DNA from: Malacoraja senta
Taxonomy: Eukaryota
Reading direction: 5' to 3'
Assembly (NCBI GenBank): GCA_038087875.1
Contig: JAXLNO010005863.1
Location: 496,001 to 554,298, forward strand
Length of the DNA: 58,298 nt
This document shows positions 25,400 to 52,084 of the stretch, in pieces (the stretch's first letter is position 1; every line of letters starts with the position of its first letter). The notes under the pieces are model-generated. The model was given only the letters and a program-made list of their open reading frames with translations. It had not been told where the DNA came from and made no database searches. Made by a program: the position numbers and the translations under genes.

Positions 25400-25928
<529 letters not shown>

Positions 25929-26189
25929 CGACATCTGCTTACCATGCATCACCACAATTACATTGCAAATCATAGATCTATCTGTCTAAAACTGAATGTA
26001 ATTTTACATATTTTGAAAATTTTGATTTCTAGGTTTGTAATTCATCTTTGTCACTGTATCGTTTGAATTGATTCTGTTATTTTGATTAGTTATAATTCTT
26101 ACCTATTACCTAACATTAATAATGTTAGCTTTGATATTAAATCTTTGTTTGTGTGGAAGAAATTAATTTGGAAGGAAATTAAAGGAAAA

Positions 26190-26695
26190 CTAGACTAAGT
26201 GGGACCAGTTGGGTCCCAGTCACACGGGAGCCTGGTCCCCCAACGCAAACCATTCCCCAACAGGGGGGCGGGGATATGTGGGGGGTGCAGGGGACGGGAG
26301 GTGTGGGGGAGGGGTGTGTGTGGGGGGGAGGGGATGTGTGTGGGTGAGGGGGGGCATGTGGGAGAGAGGGGGATATGGGGGAGGGGAGGGGGTGTGCGGG
26401 CGAGAGGGTGTGGGTGAGGGGGGCTGTTGGGGAGGGGTGTGTGTGGGAGGAGGGGGTTGTGGGGGAGGGGGGTTTGTGGGGAGGGGCGTTTGCGGGAGGG
26501 GTGTGTGGGGGAGGGTGTGTGTGTGTGTGGGGGAGGGGCTGTGTATGGGATTGGCGGTGTGCGGGGGGGGAGGGGGGTGTATGGCGGTGTGTGTGGGGTA
26601 GGTGGGGTGTGTGGGGGGAGAGAGGGTGTGCGGGAAGGGGGGTGGGGTGTGTGGGGCAAGAGAGGGTGTGGAGGAGGGGGGGTGTGGGGGAAGCA
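26190..26695 (-). mobile_element. Helitron 3'-end fragment with G-rich low-complexity array (duplicated at 27645-28160)
   Basis: CTAGACTAAGTGGGACCAGTTGGGTCCC is the reverse complement of the hairpin + CTAG end seen at 56934-56963. Confidence 0.7.
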
Positions 26696-26759
26696 GTCAA
26701 CATGATCTAAGACCTTTCCCACCCAAGTCAACATGATCTAAGACCTTTCCCACCCAAGC

Positions 26760-27100
26760 CATTCATTCTTATCCTCACTCGGGCAGAAGATACAGAAGGT
26801 TGAAAGCGCTCACCACCATTCTCAGGAATAGCTTCTTCTCCTTTGGTATCAGGAAAAACCTTCCATAGGCTAGGGTACTGTCTAATTCCCCTCTACCTCA
26901 TTGCAAACGTTGAACCTTGTCTCTGGAACGGGCGCACTACAATGCTGAAAAGTATATTCTGCACTCTGGATTTTTCCCTTCACTTTACCTATTGTACTTG
27001 AGTTTGGTTTGATGGTATTGACATGTAATATTATCTGATTTAATTGGACAGCATGCAAAATAAAGCTTTGCACTGTACCTTGGTACATGTTACAATAATG
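26760..27100 (+). mobile_element. L2/Rex-like LINE 3' UTR fragment (duplicated at about 28230-28560)
   Basis: GAAGATACAGAAGGTTGAAAGCGCTCACCACC...ACAATAAT-type tail. Confidence 0.5.
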
Positions 27101-27155
27101 AACCTCGCCTGACCTGATGGCATACTTTGCAATTCTGTAATGGTACAGTATGTGA

Positions 27156-27380
<225 letters not shown>

Positions 27381-29625
27381 TAACGACATCTGCTTACCAT
27401 GCATCACCACAATTACATTGCAAATCATAGATCTATCTGTCTAAAACTGAATGTAATTTTACATATTTTGAAAATTTTGATTTCTAGGTTTGTAATTCAT
27501 CTTTGTCACTGTATCGTTTGAATTGATTCTGTTATTTTGATTAGTTATAATTCTTACCTATTACCTAACATTAATAATGTTAGCTTTGATATTAAATCTT
27601 TGTTTGTGTGGAAGAAATTAATTTGGAGGGAAATTAAAGGAAAACTAGACTAAGTGGGACCAGTTGGGTCCCAGTCACACGGGAGCCTGGTCCCCCAACG
27701 CAAACCATTCCCCAACAGGGGGGCGGGGATATGTGGGGGGTGCAGGGGACGGGAGGTGTGGGGGAGGGGTGTGTGTGTGGGGGAGGGGATGTGTGTGGGT
27801 GAGGGGGGGCATGTGGGAGAGAGGGGGATATGGGGGAGGGGAGGGGGTGTGCGGGCGAGAGGGTGTGGGTGAGGGGGGCTGTTGGGGAGGGGTGTGTGTG
27901 TGGGAGGAGGGGGTTGTGGGGGAGGGGGGTTTGTGGGGAGGGGCGTTTGCGGGAGGGGTGTGTGGGGGAGGGTGTGTGTGTGTGTGGGGGAGGGGCTGTG
28001 TATGGGATTGGCGGTGTGCGGGGGGGAGGGGGGTGTATGGCGGTGTGTGTGGGGTAGGTGGGGTGTGTGGGGGGAGAGAGGGTGTGCGGGAAGGGGGGTG
28101 GGGTGTGTGGGGCAAGAGAGGGTGTGGAGGAGGGGGGCGTGGGGGAAGAGGGGGAAGCAGTCAACATGATCTAAGACCTTTCCCACCCAAGTCAACATGA
28201 TCTAAGACCTTTCCCACCCAAGCCATTCATTCTTATCCTCACTCGGGCAGAAGATACAGAAGGTTGAAAGCGCTCACCACCATTCTCAGGAATAGCTTCT
28301 TCTCCTTTGGTATCAGGAAAAACCTTCCATAGGCTAGGGTACTGTCTAATTCCCCTCTACCTCATTGCAAACATTGAACCTTGTCTCTGGAATGGGTGCA
28401 CTACAATGCTGAAAAGTATATTCTGCACTCTGGATTTTTCCCTTCACTTTACCTATTGTACTTGAGTTTGGTTTGATGGTATTGACATGTAATATTATCT
28501 GATTTAATTGGACAGCATGCAAAATAAAGCTTTGCACTGTACCTTGGTACATGTTACAATAATGAACCTCGCCTGACCTGATGGCATACTTTGCAATTCT
28601 GTAATGGTACAGTATGTGAAGGAACATGGATGATGGCCATTTAGTAACAGTAAGGTCTTGGTCACTGGGTAGTGTTGAATGTTGTTCCTACTGTGGTGTA
28701 CTGCTTAATGACTGAACTCTATCCCAGTGCCATAAAGATTTTCTCCAGGCCTCTGAGCATTTCTTCTGTAGTTCCTCAAAATGACACGCGTCTCATTGAA
28801 ATCACCTTTTAATGTGTAATCTCCAGTCATACCCAGTCGTAACCCTGATGAGTCTTTCATCCCATTTATTTCAGATGTAGAATTAAATTGTCGCTCATAA
28901 GGAGCGGGACGGCACGATGCCAACCAATAAACATTTAACAGGGTGGTTCTCAAAGTGGCAGCTGCATCCCTGGCAGGCAGGATACAAGTGGGAGTGAAAG
29001 AGGAAGGGGAGTTGTTTTTTTGATTGAGAAGAACATCAAGGCAGTTGTCCAAAGCAACATTACCGTGAGGCTTTCTGGGTGTAGCTGAGAAATAAGAAGT
29101 GAATGATCACCTAGCTGGGAATTGTACTTTTGACACCCGAATAGTCAACAGGAATTAGAGGGAAAAATGTGCAGGAGAGATGGCATGGTTAGTACGTTTG
29201 CAGATGACTCTATAGCAGGTGGTCTTAGAGTACTTGAAAGAAATCCATATGGTCATGTGGAGTATGTTCAAACTCTAACCAGAAATGAGGTCTAGATTGC
29301 TGGAACAGTGAGACAACTGCATTATCTTGGTAGTTGGCAGCTATTCCACCAGCTGGCTAGCTTGGTGAGCTGGAGATACATGGGAGGTCACAAACCTTTG
29401 TTTTATACGCGCAACATGTGCAGATGTTCTTGGAAACAAAAATGTCACTGGGATCCTGGGAGGAAACGCAAGGTAGAGCTATATGGCTAAATGTGATAAG
29501 TGAAAAACAAGACTATCACAATCAGTAAGACTGGAGATGTGTATCATGCTGGTGAGTCTATCAATACCACAAACTAAGGGCAAGGCCTTTTTATAAGAAT
29601 CTTGCAAAACTTTTGAAGTGAGATT

Positions 29626-38500: not shown

Positions 38501-40564
38501 ATTCTTTGTGACTAGCTAAATTGCATTATTAAATGTTTCCATTTTGAAATGTTTCTATTGTACATAAAGGTTAAGATTTGTCAGATCGGAAATGATTCTA
38601 TATCCACCATCCCTTTTCTAGGAGAATATTCCTAGGAGAATATTTGACACAAACTGATGGTGTTGTTCTCCTGACATTTATATCATCCTTTGATTAACCC
38701 ATTCTCTTCCTTTGAGAAAATCCGTGACCAGTTTGAATTATGCTGAATTGGAGGATCCAAACATGGAGATAACTCAATTTTGAATCCTACAATGCTACAT
38801 AGAATAAATGAATCATTTGTTATTGATTGCCATTCTTTTAGGAAGAATCGTAACCTTCCCCCTATTTGTGAGTGTGAAACATTTGTTGTGTTTCTTACCA
38901 GACCAAGCCCCCTAACCTCGGGGTTTGCCACCGGCAGTTGTTGTCCCCTTCTAGTAGGCACATTGTAACCTCCACGTATCCTCGGTGCAGCACGTCAACG
39001 TGTATACGAGAATGATAGGATTGTTCCTTCTCCAGCACCACATTTCGCCTGTAGGGATACTGCCTTCTCACCGCTCTGCTCAGCACAGGTGATCCTTTAG
39101 TTTCTTTGCTAGATTTTCTCCAAAACAGATTTAGGCATTTGTATATTGCATGGTTTGCAGAGCCTGCATACTTAGGATGAATATTTGGTCTTATTGCATT
39201 TTTATGAATACAATTTATTTCAAAGTGCACACTACACATGAGTGCTACATTTTGTTGTGAATACGATATATAACCTTCATCCAAACCACTGACCCCAGAA
39301 ATTTCAGCACTTGTGTAATTTCAATTCTTGTGAGCGTAAACCATTGCTCAAATTCCCCATATCAAGTTTATTCACTGCTGTAACTGCTACAATTTCCCGG
39401 GTCTCATATTTTTTGATACTCTCATCCATGGTTAATTCCTGGGCTGATGGGAGAGTAGATAATTTATAGTCATAGCTATTTCCTCTCTCAAAGGTTCCCC
39501 TGTTACTCTGGGAACAGCAAAGTTTTGTGCCAGCCTTGGAACATTTTTGGCTCTGATAATGGGCTCTTGTCCTCATTTAAATCATCATCTAAATCTAGAT
39601 ATTCATTTTTATGTTGGGTAATTTCTGGCTCCCCTGTTTCAGGTAAGTCTCTGCCAGATTCCCCCTGCGCGGGCTCTCTTGTAGGCCCACGGACAGGCAG
39701 CCCTGCTTCAGGTGCTGCTGGCGCTGGCTCAATTCTAGGCCAACGCTTCATTATTTTTACTCTTTATATTTGTCGGTGCTGGCACATTTATCATTGCACG
39801 TTTGTGCTGCCTTTTGTTCAGGCATTTCTAGTACTGGCTCTCCAATAGGCCAACACATAACTTGCCTTTTTTCTGGCATTTTTGGGCACTGGCTCTCCTG
39901 TAGGCCAACCTCTTTAATGTTTCTGCACAGGCACTGATGGCTCTCCTGTAGGCCACCCTTGTGCCTGTTCCAAGGCACCTCCTGTGCTATACTTCATTGG
40001 CCAACACCGACTTAAATCCTCCTGTGGGGGTTCTTTACAAATCATCTGCCCCATAAGGAGTTAAAACGTTTTTGACCCTTGCAGTGTAATACTCTTTCCT
40101 GCCTGAGGAGGGCATACCTCCGGTTCTGACTCATCCGAGTCTACAGGTCGGGCCGATTTTTTTTTTCTCAGCCTTGCGCCCGCCCGCGGCGGTTTAACGC
40201 ACATTCGACCACAACGGGAGTTAATGGCTTCGCTGCCACTGACTCCCCTGACTGACGCCCGCTACCCTTAGGATCTGGGGTTTTACTACGGTGCGTCCCT
40301 GGCCGCCTCTCCTTCCCATTTCTCCATAATAAACTTGAGTGGAGCTCCACCAACAAGTCTAAATGGGAAGGAAACGCTCCTGTAAGTGAAAAGTAACTCC
40401 ACTTACCTTCCGACTTTTGTTTTACTTTTGTTTTACTCACCGGCTGGGGGAGCTCCTGCTCCTCCACATACGGTCATGAACGCTATGCGTCTGATCGACA
40501 ATGACGCGTGTGCGGCTGGACGGGGCTTCTTCACGTAGTCACTCACGTGACTCCGAAGTAAAAT
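35593..40564 (-). mobile_element. Structurally complete DIRS1-type tyrosine-recombinase retrotransposon, ORFs degenerate
   Basis: Inverted termini and a bipartite ICR at 35821-35934. ORF pieces: gag-like (about 40470-38900), RT (about 38960-38200), RNase H (37543-38196), methylase-like VDAF...YAFPPF (37082-37628) and YR (36150-37044; FKSHSTRAAST and GW...F..YY). Confidence 0.95.
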
Positions 40565-41890
40565 TAACATACTGTTCATGCAAGAAAACAAACTGTGAGA
40601 AATCAAGTACAGGGAAGGAAGATGCTCATGTCAACAGCATGGTGAGCCATGTACAGATTTATGTCAGTATGTTGACTGCAGAAACTCTATTACTGCAAAA
40701 GACTTGGAATCTGATGAAGAATATTCAGATGAAGATCAGATGTATTGTAAACAAATAAATTGGGGAAATAAATGATTATATAAAGTTTTATTTTAATGTC
40801 GATCGTTTCACTGTTTATTTGATCAAATTATTTAAACAATGAGTGAATATCTTATGATAATGGCGTGCTGGTGAATGACCCACCCACCCATCCACACATA
40901 CATACATACACACACATACGCACACACACATCCATCCGTACGCACACTTCCATGCATGCACACACACAAACATGCACACATACATCCACGCATCCACACA
41001 CACATCCGCACACACACACACATCCACATCCATCCGCACGCAGACATACCTGCACACATCCATCCACACATATACATCCACACACACACACACATCCACA
41101 CATACATCCACACATACTTCCACACATTTACATCCACACATCTACAGCTACACGTTTGACAGGTATACACAGACACACACACACACAAACTACAGAACTA
41201 CAGATACTCAAACAATGCAACCCTTTTAGGGTTCTTTTAGGTTAAAGCTAATAGCCCTCATTTGCAAAGGCACCATGGTGGGGAGGGGGGGGGGGTCCTC
41301 TAACATAAATATAGGCTCATTGTAGCATAAAAAGAATACTCATCGAGTAAACATCAGAGCATTCGATTCTTGGTCAGGATGTGACATTTACATCAGAAAT
41401 AAGACAGGTCTCTTACAGGACTGTCCCCCAGCCTGGCACTGCCCCAGTCCCACTATGGCCATGACCCCCACTATCCCCACTATGGCAGTCAGTGGGGTTT
41501 AGTAAATGGGGGATCCCAGAGGATCTGTCCTGACCCTTTAATTAGGCAGGTTCATGAGCCCTTAAAACCTGGGACCTCTGCGGCAGTCTCATTCATTTTC
41601 CTATTAAAGCGACTGGAAGATGCCTTGCAGGTCTGTCCCCCAGTCTGGCGCTGCCCCAGACCCACTATGGCCATGACCCCCACTCTGCACACTGGCAGTC
41701 AGTGGGGTTCAGTAAAGGGAGGAATCCACAAGAACTGCCCTCACCCATTAATTAGGCTGGTTCAGGAGCCAGACCTCTGGAGCAGTCTCATTCAAAAAAC
41801 ACTCACAATTATATTCATTATATTATTATTATATAATATAATTATACTTAATTATATATGATTACAGTCATATTTACGTCATATATATAT
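40565..41890 (+). mobile_element. 3' end of a Cys-rich (CXC-like) transposase remnant plus 3' region; left arm of the palindrome
   Basis: LTYCSCKKTNCEK, then after a frameshift CSCQQHGEPCTDLCQYVDCRN...ESDEEYSDEDQM. Inverted homology to 42195-43117. Confidence 0.6.
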
Positions 41891-43666
41891 GACGAGTTAT
41901 AACTGACGAGTTATGACTTCCTTCTCAATGTAGGCTGTGGGCCGAGCATCAAAAATGTGTCTGGAAATCAGTTTCCGTGACCCGTCACCAAACTACATGA
42001 AATTTTCCATAGATTTAGATGAAATATAAGTGAGAACGATGTTATAACTCGTCATTGCCAAAAGCTGCACATTAATTAATTAAACTAATTAGAAAATGAG
42101 ATCGGGAAAATAAACGCCATCTAGTGGCCAATGCCCATATTACACCATGGGCAGCCTATTTCCGTGTTGCAGTCCATTTAAACTATATATTATACATATA
42201 TATATATATAAAACTTGTAAATATGACTGTAATCATATATAATTAAATATAATTATATTATGTAAAAATAATATGATGAATATAATTGTGAGTGTTTTTT
42301 TAATGGCACTGTCGCAGAGGTCCTGCTCCTGAACCTGCCTAATTAAATGGTCAGGACAGATCCTCTGGGTTCCCCCATTTACTGAAACCCGCTGACTACC
42401 ATAGTGGGGAGAGTGGGGGTAACAGCCATAGTGGGACTGGGGCAGTGCCAGGCTGGGGGACAGTCCTGTAAGAGATCTGTCTTATTTCTGATGTTAATGT
42501 CACATCCTGGCCAAGAATCGAATGCTCTGATGTTTACTCGATGAGTATTAATTTAAAGCTACAATGAGCTTATATTTATGTTAGAGACCCCCCCCCCCCG
42601 ATGGTGCCTTTGCAAATGAGGGCTATTACCTTTAACCTAAAAGAACCCTAAACATGTTGCATTGTTTATCTCTAGTTTGTGTGTGTGTCTGTGTATACCT
42701 TTCAAACGTGTATCTGTGGATGTGTGTATGTACGTGTGGATGGATGTATGTGTGCATGTATGTGTGGACGTGTACATATATGTCTACGTGTGAATGGATG
42801 TGTGGATGTGTGTGTATGCGGATTTATGTGTGCATGTATGTGTGTGTTTGCATGCATGGAAGTGTGCGTACGGATGGATGTGTGTGTGGATGTGTGAATG
42901 TATGTATGTCTGTGTGGATCGGTGGGTGGAATGTCGCAGTCATTCACCAGCACGCCATTATCATAAGTAATTCACTCATTGTTTAAATAATTTGACCAAA
43001 TAAACAGTGAAACGATCGACATTAAAATAATCATTTATTTCCCCAATTTATTTTGTTTACATTACATCTGATCTTCATCTGAATATTCTTCATCAGATTC
43101 AAAGTATTTTGCGATAGTTCAAGTTCAAGTGGAGGGTCAGGCAGAGGCTACAGAAAAAAAATCTCATAGTCATTAAGTCTGCATGGACTTCAATTCATAA
43201 AATTTCAACCTCTTCTTAATGTTAATGAGAATAACAATAGGTTACTACCATAGAAAAATTAGTTCAAGTTCACATACACCAATTCATTTCTACAGAAACA
43301 TCAACCATTTCTGACCATTTCTCACTCCAATAGAAGCCTATAAAGTGCGATAAATATCCCTCCGTTTTTCTCCCGTGGTCGGGGCCTGGAAATTGGCTGC
43401 TGCGGACGGCACTATGTACAGCCTCCCCACCGCGGAAATGATCCAAACACACCCCGCGGCTCCGCGTTCGCGAATCGGCCACTTCTTAATTGAGACTGCG
43501 GCTTCACTATATCAAGTACCTAGGCCCCGCGGTCAGAGCACTTTTTCCCGGTAAGTTATCGCAGGCAGCTCCAAGATTAGATGTTAAAGACTTATTAGAC
43601 TACAACAAGCTGGCATTAGTGAAAATGTGTAATTTACTGTGTTATGGATACACATAGTTTAGGCCC

Positions 43667-43835: not shown

Positions 43836-43888
43836 CTAATTTTTTCACATTATAAAAGGGTGCAATTAAATTAATTAAAGTCCATACA

Positions 43889-44404
43889 TGTGAGGAAGGG
43901 GTTAATAGGTATAGTTGATTTGAACTAAGCAGCACGAACACCTGACAATACACAGATAGATAATAGCCGTGAGTACAAATGGTGACATTTCAAGGATGGG
44001 AAAAAGGAGATAGCGACAACCCAGCAAAGAACTAGGGTAAGGGTCATGAGCAACTCTCTGTGCGCATGGGCAATGAACTTACATTAATATGTACACACGC
44101 CCATCATGACAAGTTGTCTCATTTAAATGCACATGCGATGTATGATCTGGGAGGTACCCTGGGCGTTGCGGGGCGTTACGGTTAGATTGTGCACCTCAGT
44201 GCTCTGATTGGAAGGAGCCCGAAGGGGAGGAATTAAAGGTGCAAACCACTGTAAAATGGTGTGAATTAAACAGAGTGACTTTCCTGGTCTCGGTGTGTCT
44301 TGATAGGGGAGACACCCGACTCTGCAGACTTGCTAATAAATAAACTTGTTTCTCTAAATTCTCTAGCATCGTGATTGTGAGCAATCAGTTTTTTGCACCT
44401 CACA
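43889..44404 (+). repeat. 5' LTR
   Basis: TG...CA termini and a polyA signal AATAAA at about 44335-44345. Roughly 97% identical to the 3' LTR by manual comparison. Confidence 0.95.
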
Positions 44405-44406
44405 GA

Positions 44407-44425
44407 TGGGGGCTCGTCTCGGGAT
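44407..44425 (+). promoter_or_regulatory. Primer binding site, tRNA-Pro
   Basis: TGGGGGCTCGTCTCGGGAT versus the canonical Pro PBS TGGGGGCTCGTCCGGGAT (one extra base). Confidence 0.85.
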
Positions 44426-44699
44426 TGCCACTCCGGCCAGCTGGCGGCGGTATACGGGAGAAGGGACGGTGCACCCCGCTGATTCAGCGGCCCTAGACCC
44501 CTTGCTTGCCGTCAGCGGTTTGAGCGAGTGATATCCCAGACCAGAGATTAGAGAAAAAAGTGGGAGTAGTTGGAAATCGCGAGGAGACAAATCGAGTGAT
44601 TCTTGTGCACAAGACCAGGGTAAGAAAACTGACTATTAAGTACTACTCGGGCGATTAAATAGATCGCGGGGAAATTCCGATCGGGAGGATGGTCAATGA

Positions 44700-44920
44700 A
44701 AACGGAAAGCCCAAAAGGGAGGGGAAGGGCGGTAAGCCCGACCCCCGCATTCTGCCTAATAGTCCGTTGGGGCGAATGCTGAGCCTCTGGGGGCAGAGAA
44801 ATACCCAGGGATTGGAGAAGACAAAAATGATTTGATTCTGTTATTTTGAGTTTTAATACATATAAAAGATGTTGCATTTATTTGAAGTAAGAATGGAACG
44901 AATGTGATTTGTGTGTAAAA
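44700..44920 (+). pseudogene. gag: gag matrix-region remnant
   Basis: Translation RILPNSPLGRMLSLWGQRNTQGLEKTKMI*FC, resembling class I ERV matrix N-termini. Confidence 0.6.
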
Positions 44921-46974
44921 ACCGGTTTGGAACGAAAGAGGAAGTTTATATATGTGATAATTATTTTGTTTATTCTATTTGTAGACCACATTGTAAGAGT
45001 AAGTAAGTAAGTAAGTTTTATTAGAATCAAAAATGTCCACTGTAGGTAGGTGTATGTTCCTTTAAATAAATCAGGTCATGGTGAAAGGCGACGAACAGCT
45101 GTAAGATAACGATTAATTGTTTGTATCTTCGTAACCTAGAAGGGGAAATTGTAAAATCAGCTTTTGGTTTTTCTGATGTTCTTTTAGATTTCTAGTCAGT
45201 AAAGATCATTTGGAAAATTGTTACTAGTGCTAGGAATTGGACATTTAAAATAGTGGTGAATATGGATTGAAATAATTGGAAATAAGTTAATTGGTAAACA
45301 TTCAAGTTTAGAAAGAAAGGAGAGAGAGGCAGTTAGAAGATAACAGAAGTAGAAAAACGACAGGCGTGAAAGTAATAAAGCAGGAGGAGTCAGTGGAAGA
45401 TTTAAAAAAGAAAGGTGAATGAATTTGCAAGGAGGCTAGAATATTTGAGAAACAAGAAATTGAGTTTAGAATAAGAAAGAAGGCATACCAGAAAGGATTA
45501 AAGTTGGAAGCATTGGGATAAAGTGATGAGACTGCTTTAAAGAGAAAAGAGAAGGACAGACACAGATTATCCCTTGGGGCACCCATAAACTGAGAGGGCT
45601 AAAAAAAGGATTAGGGCTTTGGAGGAGGAGAACGTGGGACGATTATTGATCATGGAAGATTTGAAGGCACTGTTGGTAAAAGTGATGGGAACCACTAAAG
45701 TGACAGAACTACTGAAGATGGATGGTATAAACTGATGCGAACAATGTAACAAGCAATGGCATACTGTTTGACACAGTCGGGCAGAGGGTATGGCAGGCCC
45801 TCAGACAATGTTACTCACTTAAGAGGAACCCCAAGGAACAAAGGGGAGATACACAAGGAAAGGCAAATAGCCTATCTGGAAAACCAGCTGAAAGGTGGAG
45901 AGTTTATTGATGAACATTATATTATGAACTACTGTGGTGGATGTCATTCTTCTTAAAGTCAAGCAGATTCAGCGAACAGTTGGTCTCTGCGGTCGAGAAA
46001 TATCACAAAGATAGGAAAAAGACTTGCAAACCAGCATGAGGAGCTGTTGTCAATAAACAATGGATCTAAGTGAATCCTATGACAGAACCAAGCAGGGCCA
46101 GAAAATTACATGCCAATAATGAATGTCTTTGGGGAACGTTTCCTCAAAAAGTCCTATCAGGAATGAAATTAATCTGGATATAAGCCCTAACAGGACTGGG
46201 GTCCCCAAGAGAGAAAGGGATTTAAAGGAGGATTTGTTGGTATTGTTCCATAAGTGAAAAGCGATGTAAGAGAGAGAGAGAGATTTAAAATATATATATA
46301 TATACTTCAGAATGTAGGACAGAGGATGATAACCTTGGGAAAAGGCAGGATATAGTACAGACTAGATTAGGTATAAGCCCTGTAGTGTCGTCTATGATGA
46401 ATAAGGTAATTAAGAGGTTTGGTAGACCTACAGAAATCAGCTTTGACAACGGATTGTTTTCATTTAGGGAGTAGCTAAATTAGCGATAGAGACCCTTAGA
46501 GTAAAATACACATTTGGGTATGTAACACCTGCAGTCACAGGCATGGTGGAAATAATAAATGGAACATTGAAGGTTAATATAAATAGACTTGAAGAGATGT
46601 TGCATGCAAACTAACCGAGCAGGTGGCACAATGGAGAGGTCCCTACAAGAGACAGAGTTTGGAACAGTTAAAGATAGAATTTAAAAAGTATATGAAACAG
46701 TTAATTATGATATACAAGTCTATTTATGAACAGGAAAAGTAAAAGCTGTTGGAGGTGGACCAGGGGGAAGGACCCTTTAAACCTGAAGACAAGGTATATG
46801 TATGAGTTTTCTAAACTACCGACCGATGTTCAGGTAGAAGGTTGATATACCTAGTACCATTTCAATAATTACATGAGGGCTGTCCCGCAGGTATGAATAG
46901 ATAATAGCCCTGAGGTAAGTGAAGAGGAGGACAAAGATGTGAGAAAAGAGTAGAGTTTTAACAAGAACGTTGTT

Positions 46975-47930
46975 TGACATCAGTGGTGGGCAAAATAATG
47001 GAAAGGATACTTAAGACAATATATAAGAATTTGGATCAATAGGGTAAGATTAGGAAGAATTAGCATGGATTTGTGATTGTGATGTTTGACTAATCTTGAA
47101 TTTTTTGAAAAGGTTATTAGGGAAATTGATGAGGGTAAAGTGGTGGAGGATGTTGTCTAGATGAACTTCAGTAAGGCCTTTGACAAGGTTCAATAAGGAA
47201 ATAAGGTTGGTTAAGAAGGGTTAGTAAGGAATAGCAAGATGGATTAAAAAGTGGCTGTATGGGAGATGTCAGAGAGCAATGGTGGATGGATGTTTGTCAG
47301 GTTGGAGGTCAGTGACTAGAGGGGTACCTCAGGTATGTGTGTTGGGTCCACTGTTGTTTGTCATGTGAATCAATAATCTGGATGTTGGTGTGGTAAAATA
47401 GATTAATAAGTATGTAGATGACACTAAGATAGGTGGTGTTGTGAATAATGAAGTAGATTTTAAAAGTGTACAGAGAGATTGAGATCATTTGGAAGAGTGG
47501 GTTGAAACATGACAGATAGGTTTAATGTTGATAAGTGTGAGATGATACATCTTGGTAGGACAAATCAAAATTGAACGTACATGGTAAATGATTGTGAATT
47601 GAGGAATGAAGTTGAACAGAGGGATCTAGGAATAACTGTGCATAGTTCCCTGAAGCTGGAATCTCATGAAGATAGGATGGTAAAGAAAGATTTTGGTGTG
47701 TTGGCCTTTATAAATCAGAGCATTGTGTATAGAAGTCGGGTTGTAATGTTAAATTGTACAAGGTATTAGTGAGGTCAATTGTGGAGTATGGTGTATAATT
47801 TTGGTAGGCATAATTATAGGAAAAAGGTCAACAAAATAGAGAGGATACAGAGGAGATCAATTAGAATTTTGACTGGGTTTCAGCAACTAAGACACAGAGA
47901 AAGGTTGAACAAGTTAGGTCTTTATTATTT
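46975..47930 (+). mobile_element. Heavily mutated CR1 RT fragment inside the provirus
   Basis: Residual motifs AGCATGGATTTGTG, AAGGCCTTTGACAAGGTT, GGGGTACCTCAGG and GTAGATGACACTAAG. Confidence 0.85.
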
Positions 47931-48324
47931 AGGAAAGATAGAAGGAGTCCCAACAATGCAAGGGAATGATGTGTTCCTGAGGAACTATTTACTGTCAGTG
48001 TCCCAATCTCTTGCAGAACTAAAAATTAAAGGATTGCTGGCCCAAAGCCCACCACTGGACTTCCCGATTCACTCAGTCAAGGCTGGAGACTGGGTATTAA
48101 TAAAAACGTGGAAAGATGAAAAGCTGCAACCTAAGTGGACTGGACCCTACCTGGTGTTACTAATCACCGAGACGGCAGTACGAACAAAAAAGAAAGGGTG
48201 GACATATGCAAGTCGAGTTAAGGGTCCTGTGGATGCCCCACCAGACAATATCAGCCCGTGGACTGTGCGCAAAGGAGAGGAACCATTGACTTTAATATTT
48301 ACCAAGAACCCGTGGGAAAAATGA
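47931..48324 (+). pseudogene. pol: pol integrase C-terminal fragment (GPY/F)
   Basis: Translation LKIKGLLAQSPPLDFPIHSVKAGDWVLIKTWK...WTGPYLVLLITETAVRT...SRVKGP. The stop overlaps the env ATG (ATGA). Confidence 0.9.
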
Positions 48325-50226
48325 AGATTTTGTGTTGGTGGGTCGTGTGTTGGGTGGTTACCCAACTCGTGAGTAATATAACATGCATAAAAATCACAAT
48401 ACCACAGAATAGAAGGTTCACCACCATCCCATTTGATGTATGTAAAGGAAAATGGTGGTGTGGCTATAGAATGTATGTATGCACCCATCCCTGTAAAGAT
48501 TGGCATGCGGTGTTTATTTAATCAAAATATGGGTGGCATCGAACCACCTATCAAACTGATAGGTGGAAAGTATATCAAAACCCGAACGAGGGATTGCCAG
48601 GACGCATATATGTGAGCATACAGAGTGTTCAAATGCAGGAAAGTGGTAGGTATTGGATATGTGCAGATAGAACAGGGAAGGACGCATGCCTGAGGTTTGA
48701 GATAAAAGTGAAGCGGGACGGGAATATGGTGAAATATGAGGATGGGAGGGAAAGGTTCCAGATAGATGACAGTCAGAGTAGGGATCCCTGGGCAACACCA
48801 GCATCACCGGTAGTCAGAAATGTCACCACGGAATATGAGCCTAAGGATTTGAAGATAATGATAGTAGCAGGAGAAACAGAATTAAGGCAATTATATGAGG
48901 AGGGAATACCTACAGGAGGAAAGGGAGCCAATACCTGGCTTGCCTGGATGATGTACACAGCCAGGAGTATGCAACACACCAATTGCTACGCCTGCGCCGG
49001 AGCTAAGCCCCAGCTGGTTCCAGTACCATTTCCCTTGAATTGGGATAGGACACCTGGGGCTATGTCATGTATACTACAGCTTTTCACGAATCCCATCCTA
49101 CCAAAGGATGCGACCTGCCAGAGTTATCATTACCTATTCCCGGCTAGCAACAACAATACAAAGGGCCGAAGGACAGACCCTCGACCTCCTCCATTTACCA
49201 CTCCCCTTGGGGAGGAGGGATTTGAGTGTTATACCAGATATAACCCAGATGGACAGGAAATGGGGGAGGTGCTCAACTGCAATCAGACGTACAACATAAC
49301 GGCTGAGGAACAGGGGCCTCTGTTCAAAAGCTCCTGGCTGAGAAAGCAGATAGTCAGTAGAGCTGATGTCTGGTGGTGGTGCGGGGAGAATACCCTGTGG
49401 CCCCGGTTACCGGGGTCATGGACGGGAACCTGTACCCTCACACAATTGATGATGCCCTTCACCATAGCAGTAGAACATGCTGTAGAACTCATTAAGGAAG
49501 CCGACGACAAAAGAGAGGGGTGAAAGGATCATTCGACACACACATATATATATAGATGCGATAGGGGTGCCAAGAGGGGTACCCGATGAATTCAAAGCCA
49601 GAAACTAGATAGCTGCGGGCTTTGAGTCCATACTCTTCTGGTGGTCCACAATTAATAAAAATGTGGACTGGATCAACTACCTATACTACAATCAACAACG
49701 CTTTATAAATTACACTCGAGATGCGGTTGAAGGATTAGCGGAACAACTGACAGATACCAGCCTAATGGCCTGGCAAAATCGCATGGCCTTAGACATGCTA
49801 CTGGCTGAGAAAGGAGGGGTGTGTGTAATGTTTGGGGAACAATGTTGCACCTTCATCCCCAACAACACTGCTCCTGATGGGTCAGTATCGAGAGCCCTAG
49901 CAGGTCTCACCTCCCTGTCTATCGAATTGGCCGAGAACTCCGGAGTAGACACCTCCTGGACCGGGTTTCTAGACTCCTGGTTTGAGAAATGGAAGCACAT
50001 CTTTACATCAGCCCTAACATCAGTGGTAGTTATGATGGGGTTGCTGTGTCTATTTGGATGTTGTATCATTCCCTGTGTACGGGGGTTGTCTCAGCGATTG
50101 ATAGAGACAGCCCTGACCAAGAATGACGCTGCCATGATGGCCTTTAGAACACAGTATGACCAGCGAGAGGAAGATAGGGAAGCGAGGATTCTGCTGTTAG
50201 CATTAGAAAAGGAGGAGATAGTATAA
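48321..50226 (+). pseudogene. env: env with signal peptide, V-set-like N-terminus, SU and TM; 2 stops and 2 frameshifts
   Basis: Stops at 48519-48521 and 49606-49608; frameshifts at about 49500 and 49553. Furin site RRQKR (49502-49516), IDAIGVPRGVPDEFKARN, immunosuppressive-domain-like WQNRMALDMLLA, CX6CC (CVMFGEQCC) and a hydrophobic anchor. Confidence 0.92.
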
Positions 50227-50261
50227 ATCAAAGGTTGCGTAGCAAAATTAAAAGTGTGGAT

Positions 50262-50788
50262 TCTGAGGAAGGGGTTAATAGATATAGTTGATTTAAACTA
50301 AGCAGCACGAACACCCGACAATACACAGATAGATAATAGCTGTGAGTACAAATGGTGACATTTCAAGGATGGGCAAAAAGGAGATAGCGACAACCCAGCA
50401 AAGAACTAGGGTAAGGGTCATGAGCAACTCTCTGTGCGCATGGGCAATGAACTTACATGAATATATACACACGCCCATCATGACAAGATGTCTCATTTAA
50501 ATGCACATGTGATGTATGATCTGGGAGGTACCCTGGGCATTGCGGGGCGTTACGGGGCGTTACGGTTAGATTGTGCACCTCAGTGCTCTGATTGGAAGGA
50601 GCCCGAAGGGGAGGAATTAAAGGTGTAAACCATTGTAAAATGGTGTGAATAAAAGAGAGTGACTTTCCTGGTCTCGGTGTGTCTTGATAGGGGAGACACC
50701 CGACTCTGCAGACTTGCTAATAAATAAACTTGTTTCTCTAAAATCTCTAGCATCGTGATTGTGAGCAATCAGTCTTTTGCACCTCACA
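50262..50788 (+). repeat. 3' LTR
   Basis: Matches the 5' LTR, with a first dinucleotide TC and one extra GGGCGTTACG unit. Preceded by a degenerate polypurine tract. Confidence 0.95.
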
Positions 50789-52084
50789 ATACAGATAGAT
50801 TTTCATAAATTCAGTCTTTAGATCTTACCTTTCAGTTCCAGTTGATTCACAAAGTTTCACTGGTTTCACAACTTTGTGTTACAGCACCTCAGCAGCGACT
50901 TTGCTTTCAAGGCTTTGTTCCTCTTCTATCCAGTTAGCAGCACATTCTTCAGACTTCTTAATGCTTTTCTCACTAAATTCAATTACCCTGCTGCAAGTTT
51001 CCACGACATGTATTCCACAGAACAACAAAGAACCTTCATTGGAGTCTCCAGTAAAACAGGCATCAGTGAAGCCCTCTCAGCCATGTTGTGTGCTCCCTGC
51101 CTAGCTAGCCTGAAACAAAGCGCATGATTGGCCAACTGGCTTACACCTCAATGTTAAACGTGCTTTGATTGGACTAAAAATACACTGAAAATTTTCCGTA
51201 TTTTCTCTAATTTAATAAAAATGTGCAAGTCTTGTTCATGACGAGTTTCAGGGGTGATTTATATAAATTTTTTACACAATATGTGAAAATTTCATGTAGT
51301 TTGGTGACTTGGGTCACGAAACACTGGAATAAAGCTCCTCGGCCCACAGCCTAATTATACTTCATCTAAATCTGTGGAAAATTTCATGTAGTTCCGAGAT
51401 GTGGGTCAGGAAAATTGATTACTAGACACATTTTTGATGCTCGGCCCACAGCCTATTTGACTTTTTACAGAATCCGGTCAATGCCAATGACACAATCAAA
51501 TATTTGTTCTTGTTGTAATTGTAGCGGCGGCGTGTTTGGTGCGCATCTGGTTTTTGGCTGTAAAATGAAGCACATAATATCAGAACAAACTCTCAGTTTA
51601 CCAGCAGTGAAGTGGTTGCCAAATATCCTCAATCGAGCAACAGCAATGAAAGTTGATCAAAACTTCCAGATTTAATTGCATTTGAAATCTACATGTGGCA
51701 TAGGGGGATTTGAACAAATCCCCTTGTTAGTTCAGTGCCCTCGATTTTTAATCTAGTATTTTAACAATGAGTCCATTACCATAACATTTGCAAGAATTCT
51801 TCTCGGTACTTTTATTTCCACTTGGGAGATCTTTTGGATTTGTGTTGGGTAGGTAATTTGATTCCTGTACGAATCACTTTATCGTCAAAAATTAGATTCT
51901 TAATGAATTACAATCTCTAATTCAATTTGACATCCTGTTATTTCAGCTCAGCACATTACTTAAATGCAATAATTTTTCTTATTACACCCACAGCTTATTA
52001 CATAAGGGAGAAATGAGAACAACACTATTCTCACGTTTTTTTCCCCCATACAAAATGCTTTTATTCAGAACAAACAAAAATACA

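Follow-up and report, generated by a model that had tools for sequence, protein, structure and literature searches.

How did the envelope gene of a skate retrovirus come to begin with a domain that resembles an immunoglobulin (Ig) receptor? The question is raised by a 58,298-nucleotide stretch of the Malacoraja senta genome (contig JAXLNO010005863.1, positions 496,001 to 554,298; hereafter the window), which holds a provirus of an endogenous retrovirus (ERV) family with a recognizable env gene. The initial annotation read the N-terminus of the surface subunit (SU) as an Ig variable-type domain (V-set, IgV) of the CD300/pIgR kind, recruited from the host and set in front of an otherwise ordinary SU. 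We favour another answer and hold it, as a whole, to be fairly probable: codons 23-132 of env form a compact receptor-binding domain (RBD) of the RBD-C type, with a predicted IgV fold, the likely receptor-binding head of a young class I ERV family, and it likely goes back, as do the RBDs of EnvP(b)1 and of the leukemia viruses, to one ancient capture of a CD300/pIgR-like V exon. It is a compact variant of a known domain and not an add-on architecture; the idea of a skate-specific captured add-on fails.

The residues first reported are present as quoted: positions 48387-48710 correspond to codons 23-130, with an in-frame stop at 48519-48521 (TAA, env codon 67), and ordinary SU does resume after the domain, with NTWLAW and the C-Y-A-C motif at codons 204-225. 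The gene runs from leader through IgV domain, linker and CXXC-bearing C-domain to a transmembrane subunit (TM) with CX6CC, which is the gamma-type Env layout as described in the accessible part of a review (PMC9967133); the same part describes a proline-rich region after the gamma-type RBD as often present and poorly conserved. CXXC in SU, and CX6CC with an immunosuppressive-domain motif in TM, mark the protein as gamma-type Env. A candidate furin site between SU and TM, of the form R-x-K/R-R, was seen at env position 396 of the single sister frame examined. In the window copy the SU/TM junction is broken, a frame break and a further stop (49606-49608) precede the TM frame, and the env is dead.

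Searching with the TM frame, we found relatives in sharks, teleosts, amphibians, birds, a marsupial and primates, EnvP(b)1-type proteins included, among the 120 longer envs taken from 482 listed; several of the nearest named ones are from sharks. An N-terminal part was separable in 81. An iterative profile seeded by the domain alone recruited 69 of these 81 and left 12 out; three primate EnvP(b)1-type proteins joined in the third round (E ~1e-24), and the recruited N-termini align colinearly along the entire domain. A profile of 41 ordinary RBDs, built without the window's ERV family and its four compact relatives, scores the domain at 21.5 bits (reversed controls at most 1.6). HHalign probabilities are 98.0% against these RBDs and 94.1% against the host set, and below 1% for reversed alignments. 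The region thus aligns with ordinary SU domains of related ERVs, an outcome that the initial annotation had itself named as telling against its proposal. Far from being an extra module in front of SU, the domain is the RBD itself, homologous end to end with ordinary RBDs. That codons 23-132 are a gamma-type RBD of the RBD-C type we regard as very probable.

By analogy, receptor binding is the likely role of the domain. Following gamma-type Env biology, it would bind a cell-surface receptor, upon which CXXC/CX6CC isomerisation, SU release and TM-driven fusion would ensue; for a decoy role, also suggested at the outset, no support was found. In the same env group, a predicted protein of a marsupial, the bilby (P0005), lacks an N-terminal RBD, while its SU C-part is 34% identical.

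Taken as a single sequence, the domain yields no Ig match with phmmer against the PDB and no V-set row in Pfam at E ≤ 10, where host exons reach 1e-11 to 1e-15; the V-set hit that had been anticipated from Pfam did not appear. Over 1.84 billion representative sequences, phmmer gave 46 matches (29 scanned, 16 further ones unscanned): the domain's own family and one host-like match, P0013, a teleost-type multi-Ig protein with V-set domains. Beta-propeller repeats, 28 of the 29 scanned matches, were rejected as summed repeat noise. An Atlas match of a related protein (V-set, 0.86, 163 shared features) stayed below the 0.9 bar and was kept as a lead only, and word-index searches returned one protein for the domain and three for the SU C-part, too few to be used.

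Structure prediction points to an Ig fold. AlphaFold, run on 33 env-only rows, gave a seven-stranded model (predicted local distance difference test, pLDDT, 84; predicted template modelling score, pTM, 0.78) in which the domain is predicted to adopt the IgV fold. Its Foldseek neighbours are of IgV type, as the initial annotation expected, with the EnvP(b)1 RBD (6W5Y) on top and pIgR, NKp44 and CD300a behind it. In VIA, CD300a (Z 11.3; root-mean-square deviation, rmsd, 2.6; 98 residues aligned), pIgR D2 (11.1; 3.0; 103) and EnvP(b)1 (10.6; 2.7; 110) are ties, and among the top rows the EnvP(b)1 RBD aligns the most residues at the highest identity (19%). Judging from the model and these neighbours, an independently folding IgV-like domain would precede the CXXC. 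A fold computed from the single sequence (pLDDT 40) was discarded, its Foldseek list having served as a lead only.

What, then, makes it an RBD-C domain? The class was named by Hotzel (bioRxiv 10.1101/2024.03.17.585361), who, in the accessible part of the preprint, notes the absence of the disulfide between strands B and F and describes a tetrad (Tyr119, Trp144, Trp154 and Asp217 of murine leukemia virus, MLV, next to Cys121-Cys141) that is no feature of IgV domains in general. The accessible part of the IgStrand paper (PMC12051499) assigns IgV topology to the MLV RBD. In the skate family the putative tetrad, Tyr52, Trp61, Trp72 and Asp121, is invariant in 30 of 30 genomic copies together with Cys54 and Cys58; a census of 49 full RBDs finds Tyr in 45, the two Cys in 47 and 41, Trp in 43, Trp or Tyr in 45 and Asp in 37. 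The two cysteines, in the C-strand/C-C' sequence Y-V-C-T-H-P-C, are the C-x-x-x-C pair that was first described as retained, and rightly so.

The initial annotation also held that both canonical Ig cysteines were replaced. On the F strand this is the case: instead of the canonical D-x-G-x-Y-x-C the region reads E-S-G-R-Y-W-I, Ile113 falls on the cysteine site in a gap-free match (Ile in 30 of 30 copies), and a Cys follows one position later. On the B strand replacement is likely only, by Phe38 according to register (25 of 42 RBDs and all 24 host exons compared have a Gly seven residues upstream, and the model strand ends at residue 39). MAFFT and HHalign argue for a different assignment, placing Cys41 and not Phe38 on this site; Cys41 as a retained B-strand cysteine was dropped after the register test, though the aligners favour it. 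The "coordinated remodelling" of cysteines is not local to the lineage: the F-strand site is Leu or Ile in 42 of the 49 RBDs, so the loss is clade-wide and ancestral to the RBD-C class.

The domain stands apart by its size. Its core of 93 residues is smaller than in any of the 49 RBDs it was set against (median 127; EnvP(b)1 129), host V domains having about 85, and it lacks the expanded loops (VRA, VRB and VRC, for variable regions A to C) of the RBD-C subtypes Type-C and Pb(1). Because of the short loops and the 93-residue core, we file it under neither subtype. The [DE]-x-G-x-Y corner is kept in 14 of the 49 other RBDs.

Which host family does the domain recall? Profile A1, of 33 env rows, excludes host proteins, EnvP(b)1 and canonical-IgV envs. 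Against the PDB it has 33 matches at E ≤ 10, of which 30 are Ig-superfamily chains and one is unrelated. First comes 6W5Y (3.6e-25), then the RBD of feline leukemia virus (FeLV; 2.1e-4), then CD300lf (mouse; 1.7e-3 to 1.8e-3 for three constructs and 0.031 for a fourth), trout pIgR (0.036) and other Ig chains; the MLV RBD itself is absent from the PDB matches of A1 and of A2, a profile made without the window's ERV family. Scored on 68 distinct host V exons, A1 ranks the CD300/pIgR-like cluster type in all of the best 25 places. Median scores are 13.4 bits for 36 exons of this cluster, 5.0 for 32 other V exons (antibody, T-cell receptor, TIM-, butyrophilin- and nectin-like, by our own reading) and -0.3 for reversed sequences. 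A2 preserves the order (7.8 versus 2.2 bits).

The converse comparison agrees. A profile of the 36 CD300/pIgR-like exons scores the domain at 9.1 bits, equalled by 1 of 2000 shuffles; a profile of the 32 other exons scores it at 1.7 bits, equalled by 125 of 2000. The Ig resemblance thus goes beyond chance, and the nearest host family is the CD300/pIgR-like one, as proposed from the start. A host profile that also includes P0013, a protein found by searching with the window domain, gives P0066 34.9 bits, P0106 27.4, P0085 15.1, the window domain 13.5, P0051 12.8 and EnvP(b)1 about -2; on this profile at least 5 bits are reached by 10 of 82 env N-termini, 0 of 82 reversed ones and 0 of 82 C-domain controls. 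Motifs follow the same division: 28 of the 36 cluster exons and none of the 32 others carry [KR]-[YF]-x-C, and G-x-D-P is found in 7 of 36 and 0 of 32, as well as in 23 of 49 RBDs.

The host exons were reached with the P0013 domain, which as a genome query led to six env copies and five V exons of a large tandem cluster (149 matches, on contig C5 and on further, unplaced contigs); its family label comes from motif likeness and PDB neighbours and not from annotation. One cluster subfamily lacks the C-C' cysteines. Short matches to the P0066 domain (42-44% over 34-45 residues) at C1:247902350-247902484, C2667 and C2673 (L062-L064) possibly belong to another ERV or Ig-related element. Light-chain-like V exons (L097-L098, L108-L110, L130, L135-L139) continue in frame into a J-like F/Y-G-x-G-T motif, a pattern that we take to be that of germline-joined genes.

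The likeness extends to a binding site. In CD300lf, phosphocholine and a metal are bound by Tyr34, Cys36-Cys44, Trp89, Lys94, Gly96, Asp98, Met100, Gln41 and Arg42 (Nelson 2018, PMC6166816, accessible part). In the A1 profile alignment, whose F-G part is gap-free, Tyr52, Cys54, Cys58, Trp112, Gly119 and Asp121 align with CD300lf Tyr34, Cys36, Cys44, Trp89, Gly96 and Asp98, the FG-loop Gly119-Lys-Asp121 falling in register with the last two. The CD300 pocket therefore coincides with two residues of the tetrad and with the cysteine pair.

We propose the following history. An ancestor of the RBD-C class would have captured a CD300/pIgR-like host V exon, after which the B-F disulfide would have been replaced by a hydrophobic pair and new loop cysteines and two tryptophans gained. 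Most RBD-C lineages would then have acquired long variable loops and lost the D-x-G-x-Y corner. The lineage in the window would have retained short loops and the corner, and because it kept them its ancestry would still be readable. The compact domain likely names the donor family of RBD-C. The Tyr, Cys-Cys and Asp found across RBD-C may be left over from the head-group/metal pocket of CD300 and could today play a structural part or still serve in membrane contact; that the CC'/FG cleft still contacts lipid is speculative.

We give an even chance to the broadest form of this proposal. It holds that the whole RBD-C class (MLV, FeLV, EnvP(b)1 and fish, amphibian and bird relatives) stems from a CD300/pIgR-like V exon, that the tetrad is what remains of a phospholipid-head-group/metal pocket, and that the first capture provided a C-domain-only Env with a lipid- or membrane-attachment head. 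Fish ERVs would preserve a series from near-canonical V-set heads (P0066 and P0106, possibly repeat captures) through compact intermediates to loop-expanded RBDs.

Several observations weigh against the origin we favour, and the signal that ties the domain to a host family is weak. A2, made of ordinary RBDs alone, reaches CD300lf at E 0.6 only, and a six-row compact profile (A3) has human CD300lf at 0.032, ranked behind designed TIM barrels, and EnvP(b)1 is absent from its matches at E ≤ 10. The Trp89 counterpart is present in just 2 of 49 other RBDs, and CD300lf Gln41, Arg42 and Met100 have no counterpart in the domain. The cluster exons are paralogues, hence non-independent, and were reached through a chain begun with the window domain itself. 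The RBD alignment given to AlphaFold may bias the model toward the RBD fold, and the structural Z scores are tied between 11.3 and 9.9, so that CD300/pIgR is inseparable from TREM2, TIM, MOG, butyrophilin and antibody domains. Our domain tree (60 rows, 111 columns, LG+G4) used no mixture model and carries a long-branch warning; its approximately unbiased (AU) tests do not reject a compact trio of separate origin with host-like domains (p 0.168), nor do they reject a host CD300/pIgR-like set that is monophyletic (p 0.308).

Might the donor simply not be identifiable? The domain would then be an ordinary RBD-C of IgV origin, derived from another or an extinct IgV family, its lean toward CD300/pIgR being a by-product of shared fold, short loops and the C-C' disulfide. 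The tied structural scores, the marginal CD300lf E-values and the host-set monophyly left standing suit this explanation, as do TIM-like exons and light chains, which score 9-12 bits on A1. We nevertheless consider it unlikely: the lean recurs in the PDB ranking, the host exon ranking, the motif census and the shuffles, and persists when the window family is removed from the profile, and the FG-loop G-x-D-P, found in none of the 32 other exons, is not a general IgV feature here.

When would the capture have taken place? The notion that a host immune-receptor domain was recruited survives only for the ancestor of the whole domain class. For the window lineage itself, a recent capture from the host's own cluster is rejected: the best host protein identity of the domain is 28-29%, and no DNA similarity to 100 host loci was found (best match 24 nt, E 0.058).

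In the domain tree 26 RBDs group together at 99/97, the trio with the window domain branching first, and this clade adjoins P0066/P0106 and teleost-type domains (95/89). The tree of SU C-domain and TM (83 rows, quick search only) places P0051 as the sister of the window's family (94), both within a group of weak support (85) that also takes in EnvP(b)1, bird and shark envs. It sets P0066 and P0106 on opposite sides of a branch with 99 in the Shimodaira-Hasegawa-like approximate likelihood ratio test (SH-aLRT), among bearers of ordinary RBDs. These two Envs belong to the same group as the window env and carry near-canonical, CD300/pIgR-like V-set domains in the RBD slot (P0066 residues 20-127, P0106 residues 70-195). 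Pfam V-set finds the first above its cut-off (5.6e-7) and the second below it (0.0039), and HHalign gives 97% to the host set and 23% to ordinary RBDs. Unlike the window domain, they keep the F-strand Cys and a B-strand Cys, have neither the Trp nor the Asp of the tetrad and stay outside the set that the RBD profile recruits. Their V-set heads may have been captured later, swapped in as modules or retained from an ancestor, and the two are better candidates than the window gene for direct capture of a CD300/pIgR-like exon.

The compact lineage itself, that is, the window family and two related envs, could likewise have swapped an older RBD for a fresh CD300/pIgR-like exon and then converged on RBD-C. 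Such an independent later capture fits the AU result for the compact trio and the compact-group profile, which lists CD300lf and not EnvP(b)1. The near-canonical heads of P0066 and P0106 on different SU-C/TM branches indicate that repeated capture or swapping seems to occur, and the SIRP-derived RBD is a published precedent. We find it quite unlikely all the same. The domain bears derived marks absent from the host exons (F-D-x-C, C-x-x-W, the second Trp, the lost F-strand Cys), its 21.5 bits on the ordinary-RBD profile exceed the 4.9 to 13.5 bits on host profiles, the domain tree supports a single RBD clade (99/97), and the host exons lack DNA similarity.

How does the proposed ancient capture compare with known systems? 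The EnvP(b)1 RBD (6W5Y; Pb(1) type of Hotzel) shares with the window domain the slot before CXXC, an IgV topology (predicted for the window domain) without B-F disulfide, the TM-defined Env group and the motifs F-D-x-C, Y-x-C, C-x-x-W and G-x-D. Identity is about 19-21%, and the window domain differs in its smaller core, its short loops, its E-x-G-x-Y corner and CD300-type Trp, both lacking in EnvP(b)1, and an extra Cys114/Cys123 pair. The MLV/FeLV RBDs (Type-C; 1AOL, 1LCS) resemble it through the FeLV profile match and through the MLV tetrad and cysteine pair, all of which have counterparts; unlike them, the window domain model is devoid of long VRA/VRB loops and of the extra N-terminal strand, and the linker is not proline-rich. 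With CD300lf/CD300a, pIgR and the host cluster exons it shares a V-set fold according to the model (Z 11.3, 11.1; rmsd 2.6-3.0; 98-103 residues), the C-strand Y-x-C with a second Cys, the D-strand Arg, the tyrosine corner and the FG-loop G-x-D; unlike them it has no B-F disulfide and no Pfam V-set match, is at most 29% identical and is part of a viral Env. The SIRP-like RBD of the alpha-like Env-Dbi, as presented in the accessible part of Hotzel's 2024 preprint, is also a host IgV used as Env N-terminal domain. It is a recent capture, BLAST-detectable, with the B-F disulfide kept, no tetrad and no CXXC in its Env, whereas the window domain bears the tetrad and is both old and derived.

The IgV-like fold of gamma-type RBDs was already known. 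What a short RBD that eroded slowly, together with related fish envs, contributes is evidence at the level of sequence that names a donor family, and a meaning of the tetrad that can be put to the test. In the accessible text of Hotzel's preprint, which models ZFERV, the derivation of RBD-C from vertebrate IgV is given as not known and the host donor gene as unidentified; the words "CD300", "pIgR", "TREM", "fish" and "shark" are absent from that text, while its supplements and figures could hold fish envs. No publication tying RBD-C to CD300 or pIgR was found in the literature searched, most subscription journals lying outside its coverage. If the proposal is true, an innate immune receptor was the source of a major entry module of retroviruses, and the RBD slot took up CD300/pIgR-like domains, perhaps more than once.

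Is the domain maintained in its host genome? Among 380 candidates, 150 matches were scored (66-100% identity), of which 118 have no stop within the match and 15 lie within frames of at least 600 codons (hand count). The 20 long regions examined include some with gag and pol frames and others with decayed interiors. Duplicates of the window insertion aside, 9 of 13 loci have paired long terminal repeats (LTRs) with an identity of 98.5% or more, which indicates a recent spread of the family. For nine insertions the ratio of non-synonymous to synonymous rates (dN/dS) amounts to 0.39 for the domain, 0.33 for linker plus SU C-domain and 0.16 for TM; the copies were picked for open frames and the pairs overlap. 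The domain is under purifying selection in open copies. Several independent insertions of the same young family retain a long env frame although their gag-pol is lost or decayed, and others lack most of env, a mix of non-autonomous forms. Four sequencing runs, only presumed to be of RNA, have contigs that span the env with less than about 95% identity; these were not used for any claim on expression.

The amplification of the window insertion brings up one more explanation, in which the domain is kept because the host, having domesticated it, or the virus employs it as a secreted Ig or lipid decoy, for instance from the amplified copies. The insertion was indeed amplified with its flanks: the junction between 3' LTR and flank is present in 19 of 40 scored matches, the other 21 having the flank without it. 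In all four long duplicates examined env is open and gag and pol are gone, and dN/dS among the four is 0.32 in the domain. Yet many duplicates are broken, the window copy among them, TM shows a dN/dS of 2.1 on very few changes, and in independent young insertions it is precisely the RBD slot of an entry protein that the domain occupies. We regard domestication or such a decoy role as very improbable.

The features of the provirus and the host cluster are collected in Table 1. Class I (gamma/epsilon-like) features are Gag p30, reverse transcriptase (RT), RNase H, rve and MLVIN_C, seen with Pfam in sister copies and the window remnant, and LTRs with a target-site duplication; the assignment is made from these features. 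The two LTRs differ by 16 mismatches in 516 aligned columns and an indel. The primer-binding site is presumably tRNA-Pro-like. A dispersed-repeat (family D8) fragment lies at about 47286-47435, inside the decayed interior.

Table 1 Positions of the provirus and its parts in the window, and of the host V-exon cluster
Feature	Position (strand)	Remarks
Provirus	43889-50788 (+)	6.9 kb, paired LTRs and 5-bp target-site duplication
5' LTR (TG...CA)	43889..44404 (+)	duplicated ATACA directly upstream
Primer-binding site	44407..44426 (+)	read from the letters
Decayed internal region	44427..47928 (+)	gag and pol frames gone
Integrase C-terminal remnant	47929..48324 (+)	Pfam MLVIN_C, E 3.9e-10; stop overlaps env start
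env start and hydrophobic leader	48321..48386 (+)	ATG 48321; codons 1-22; signal peptide likely
Compact RBD-C-type domain, predicted IgV fold	48387..48716 (+)	codons 23-132; broken by stop 48519-48521
Tyr52-x-Cys54...Cys58-x-x-Trp61	48474..48503 (+)	RBD-C tetrad residues a and b with Cys pair
E-S-G-R-Y tyrosine corner, Trp112, Ile113, Cys114, Gly119, Asp121, Cys123	48639..48689 (+)	Ile113, F-strand Cys site; Asp121, tetrad residue d
RBD/C-domain linker	48717..48929 (+)	proline ~7%
SU C-domain with CXXC	48930..49520 (+)	C222-Y-A-C225 at 48984-48995; ends at stop 49521-49523
TM remnant	49609..50226 (+)	immunosuppressive-domain-like motif and CX6CC (49822-49848); Pfam TLV_coat, E 2.3e-10
3' LTR	50262..50788 (+)	ATACA directly downstream
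CD300/pIgR-like cluster	contig C5 ~0.67-1.77 Mb; C5746, C3381, C2302, C1219, C1824, C1977, C4994	

An Rfam scan of the window returned zero matches. Positions 43836-51300 hold the provirus inside a multi-copy host repeat unit, both amplified together; the four long duplicates have both flanks and the ATACA duplication in common, and some of the amplified copies may be haplotigs. Upstream, at 40559-43112, are an inverted duplicated block and a CA-rich microsatellite, both also present in the duplicates. Farther upstream, at 25770-28440, lies a direct duplication that is almost perfect and spaced at about 1455 bp.

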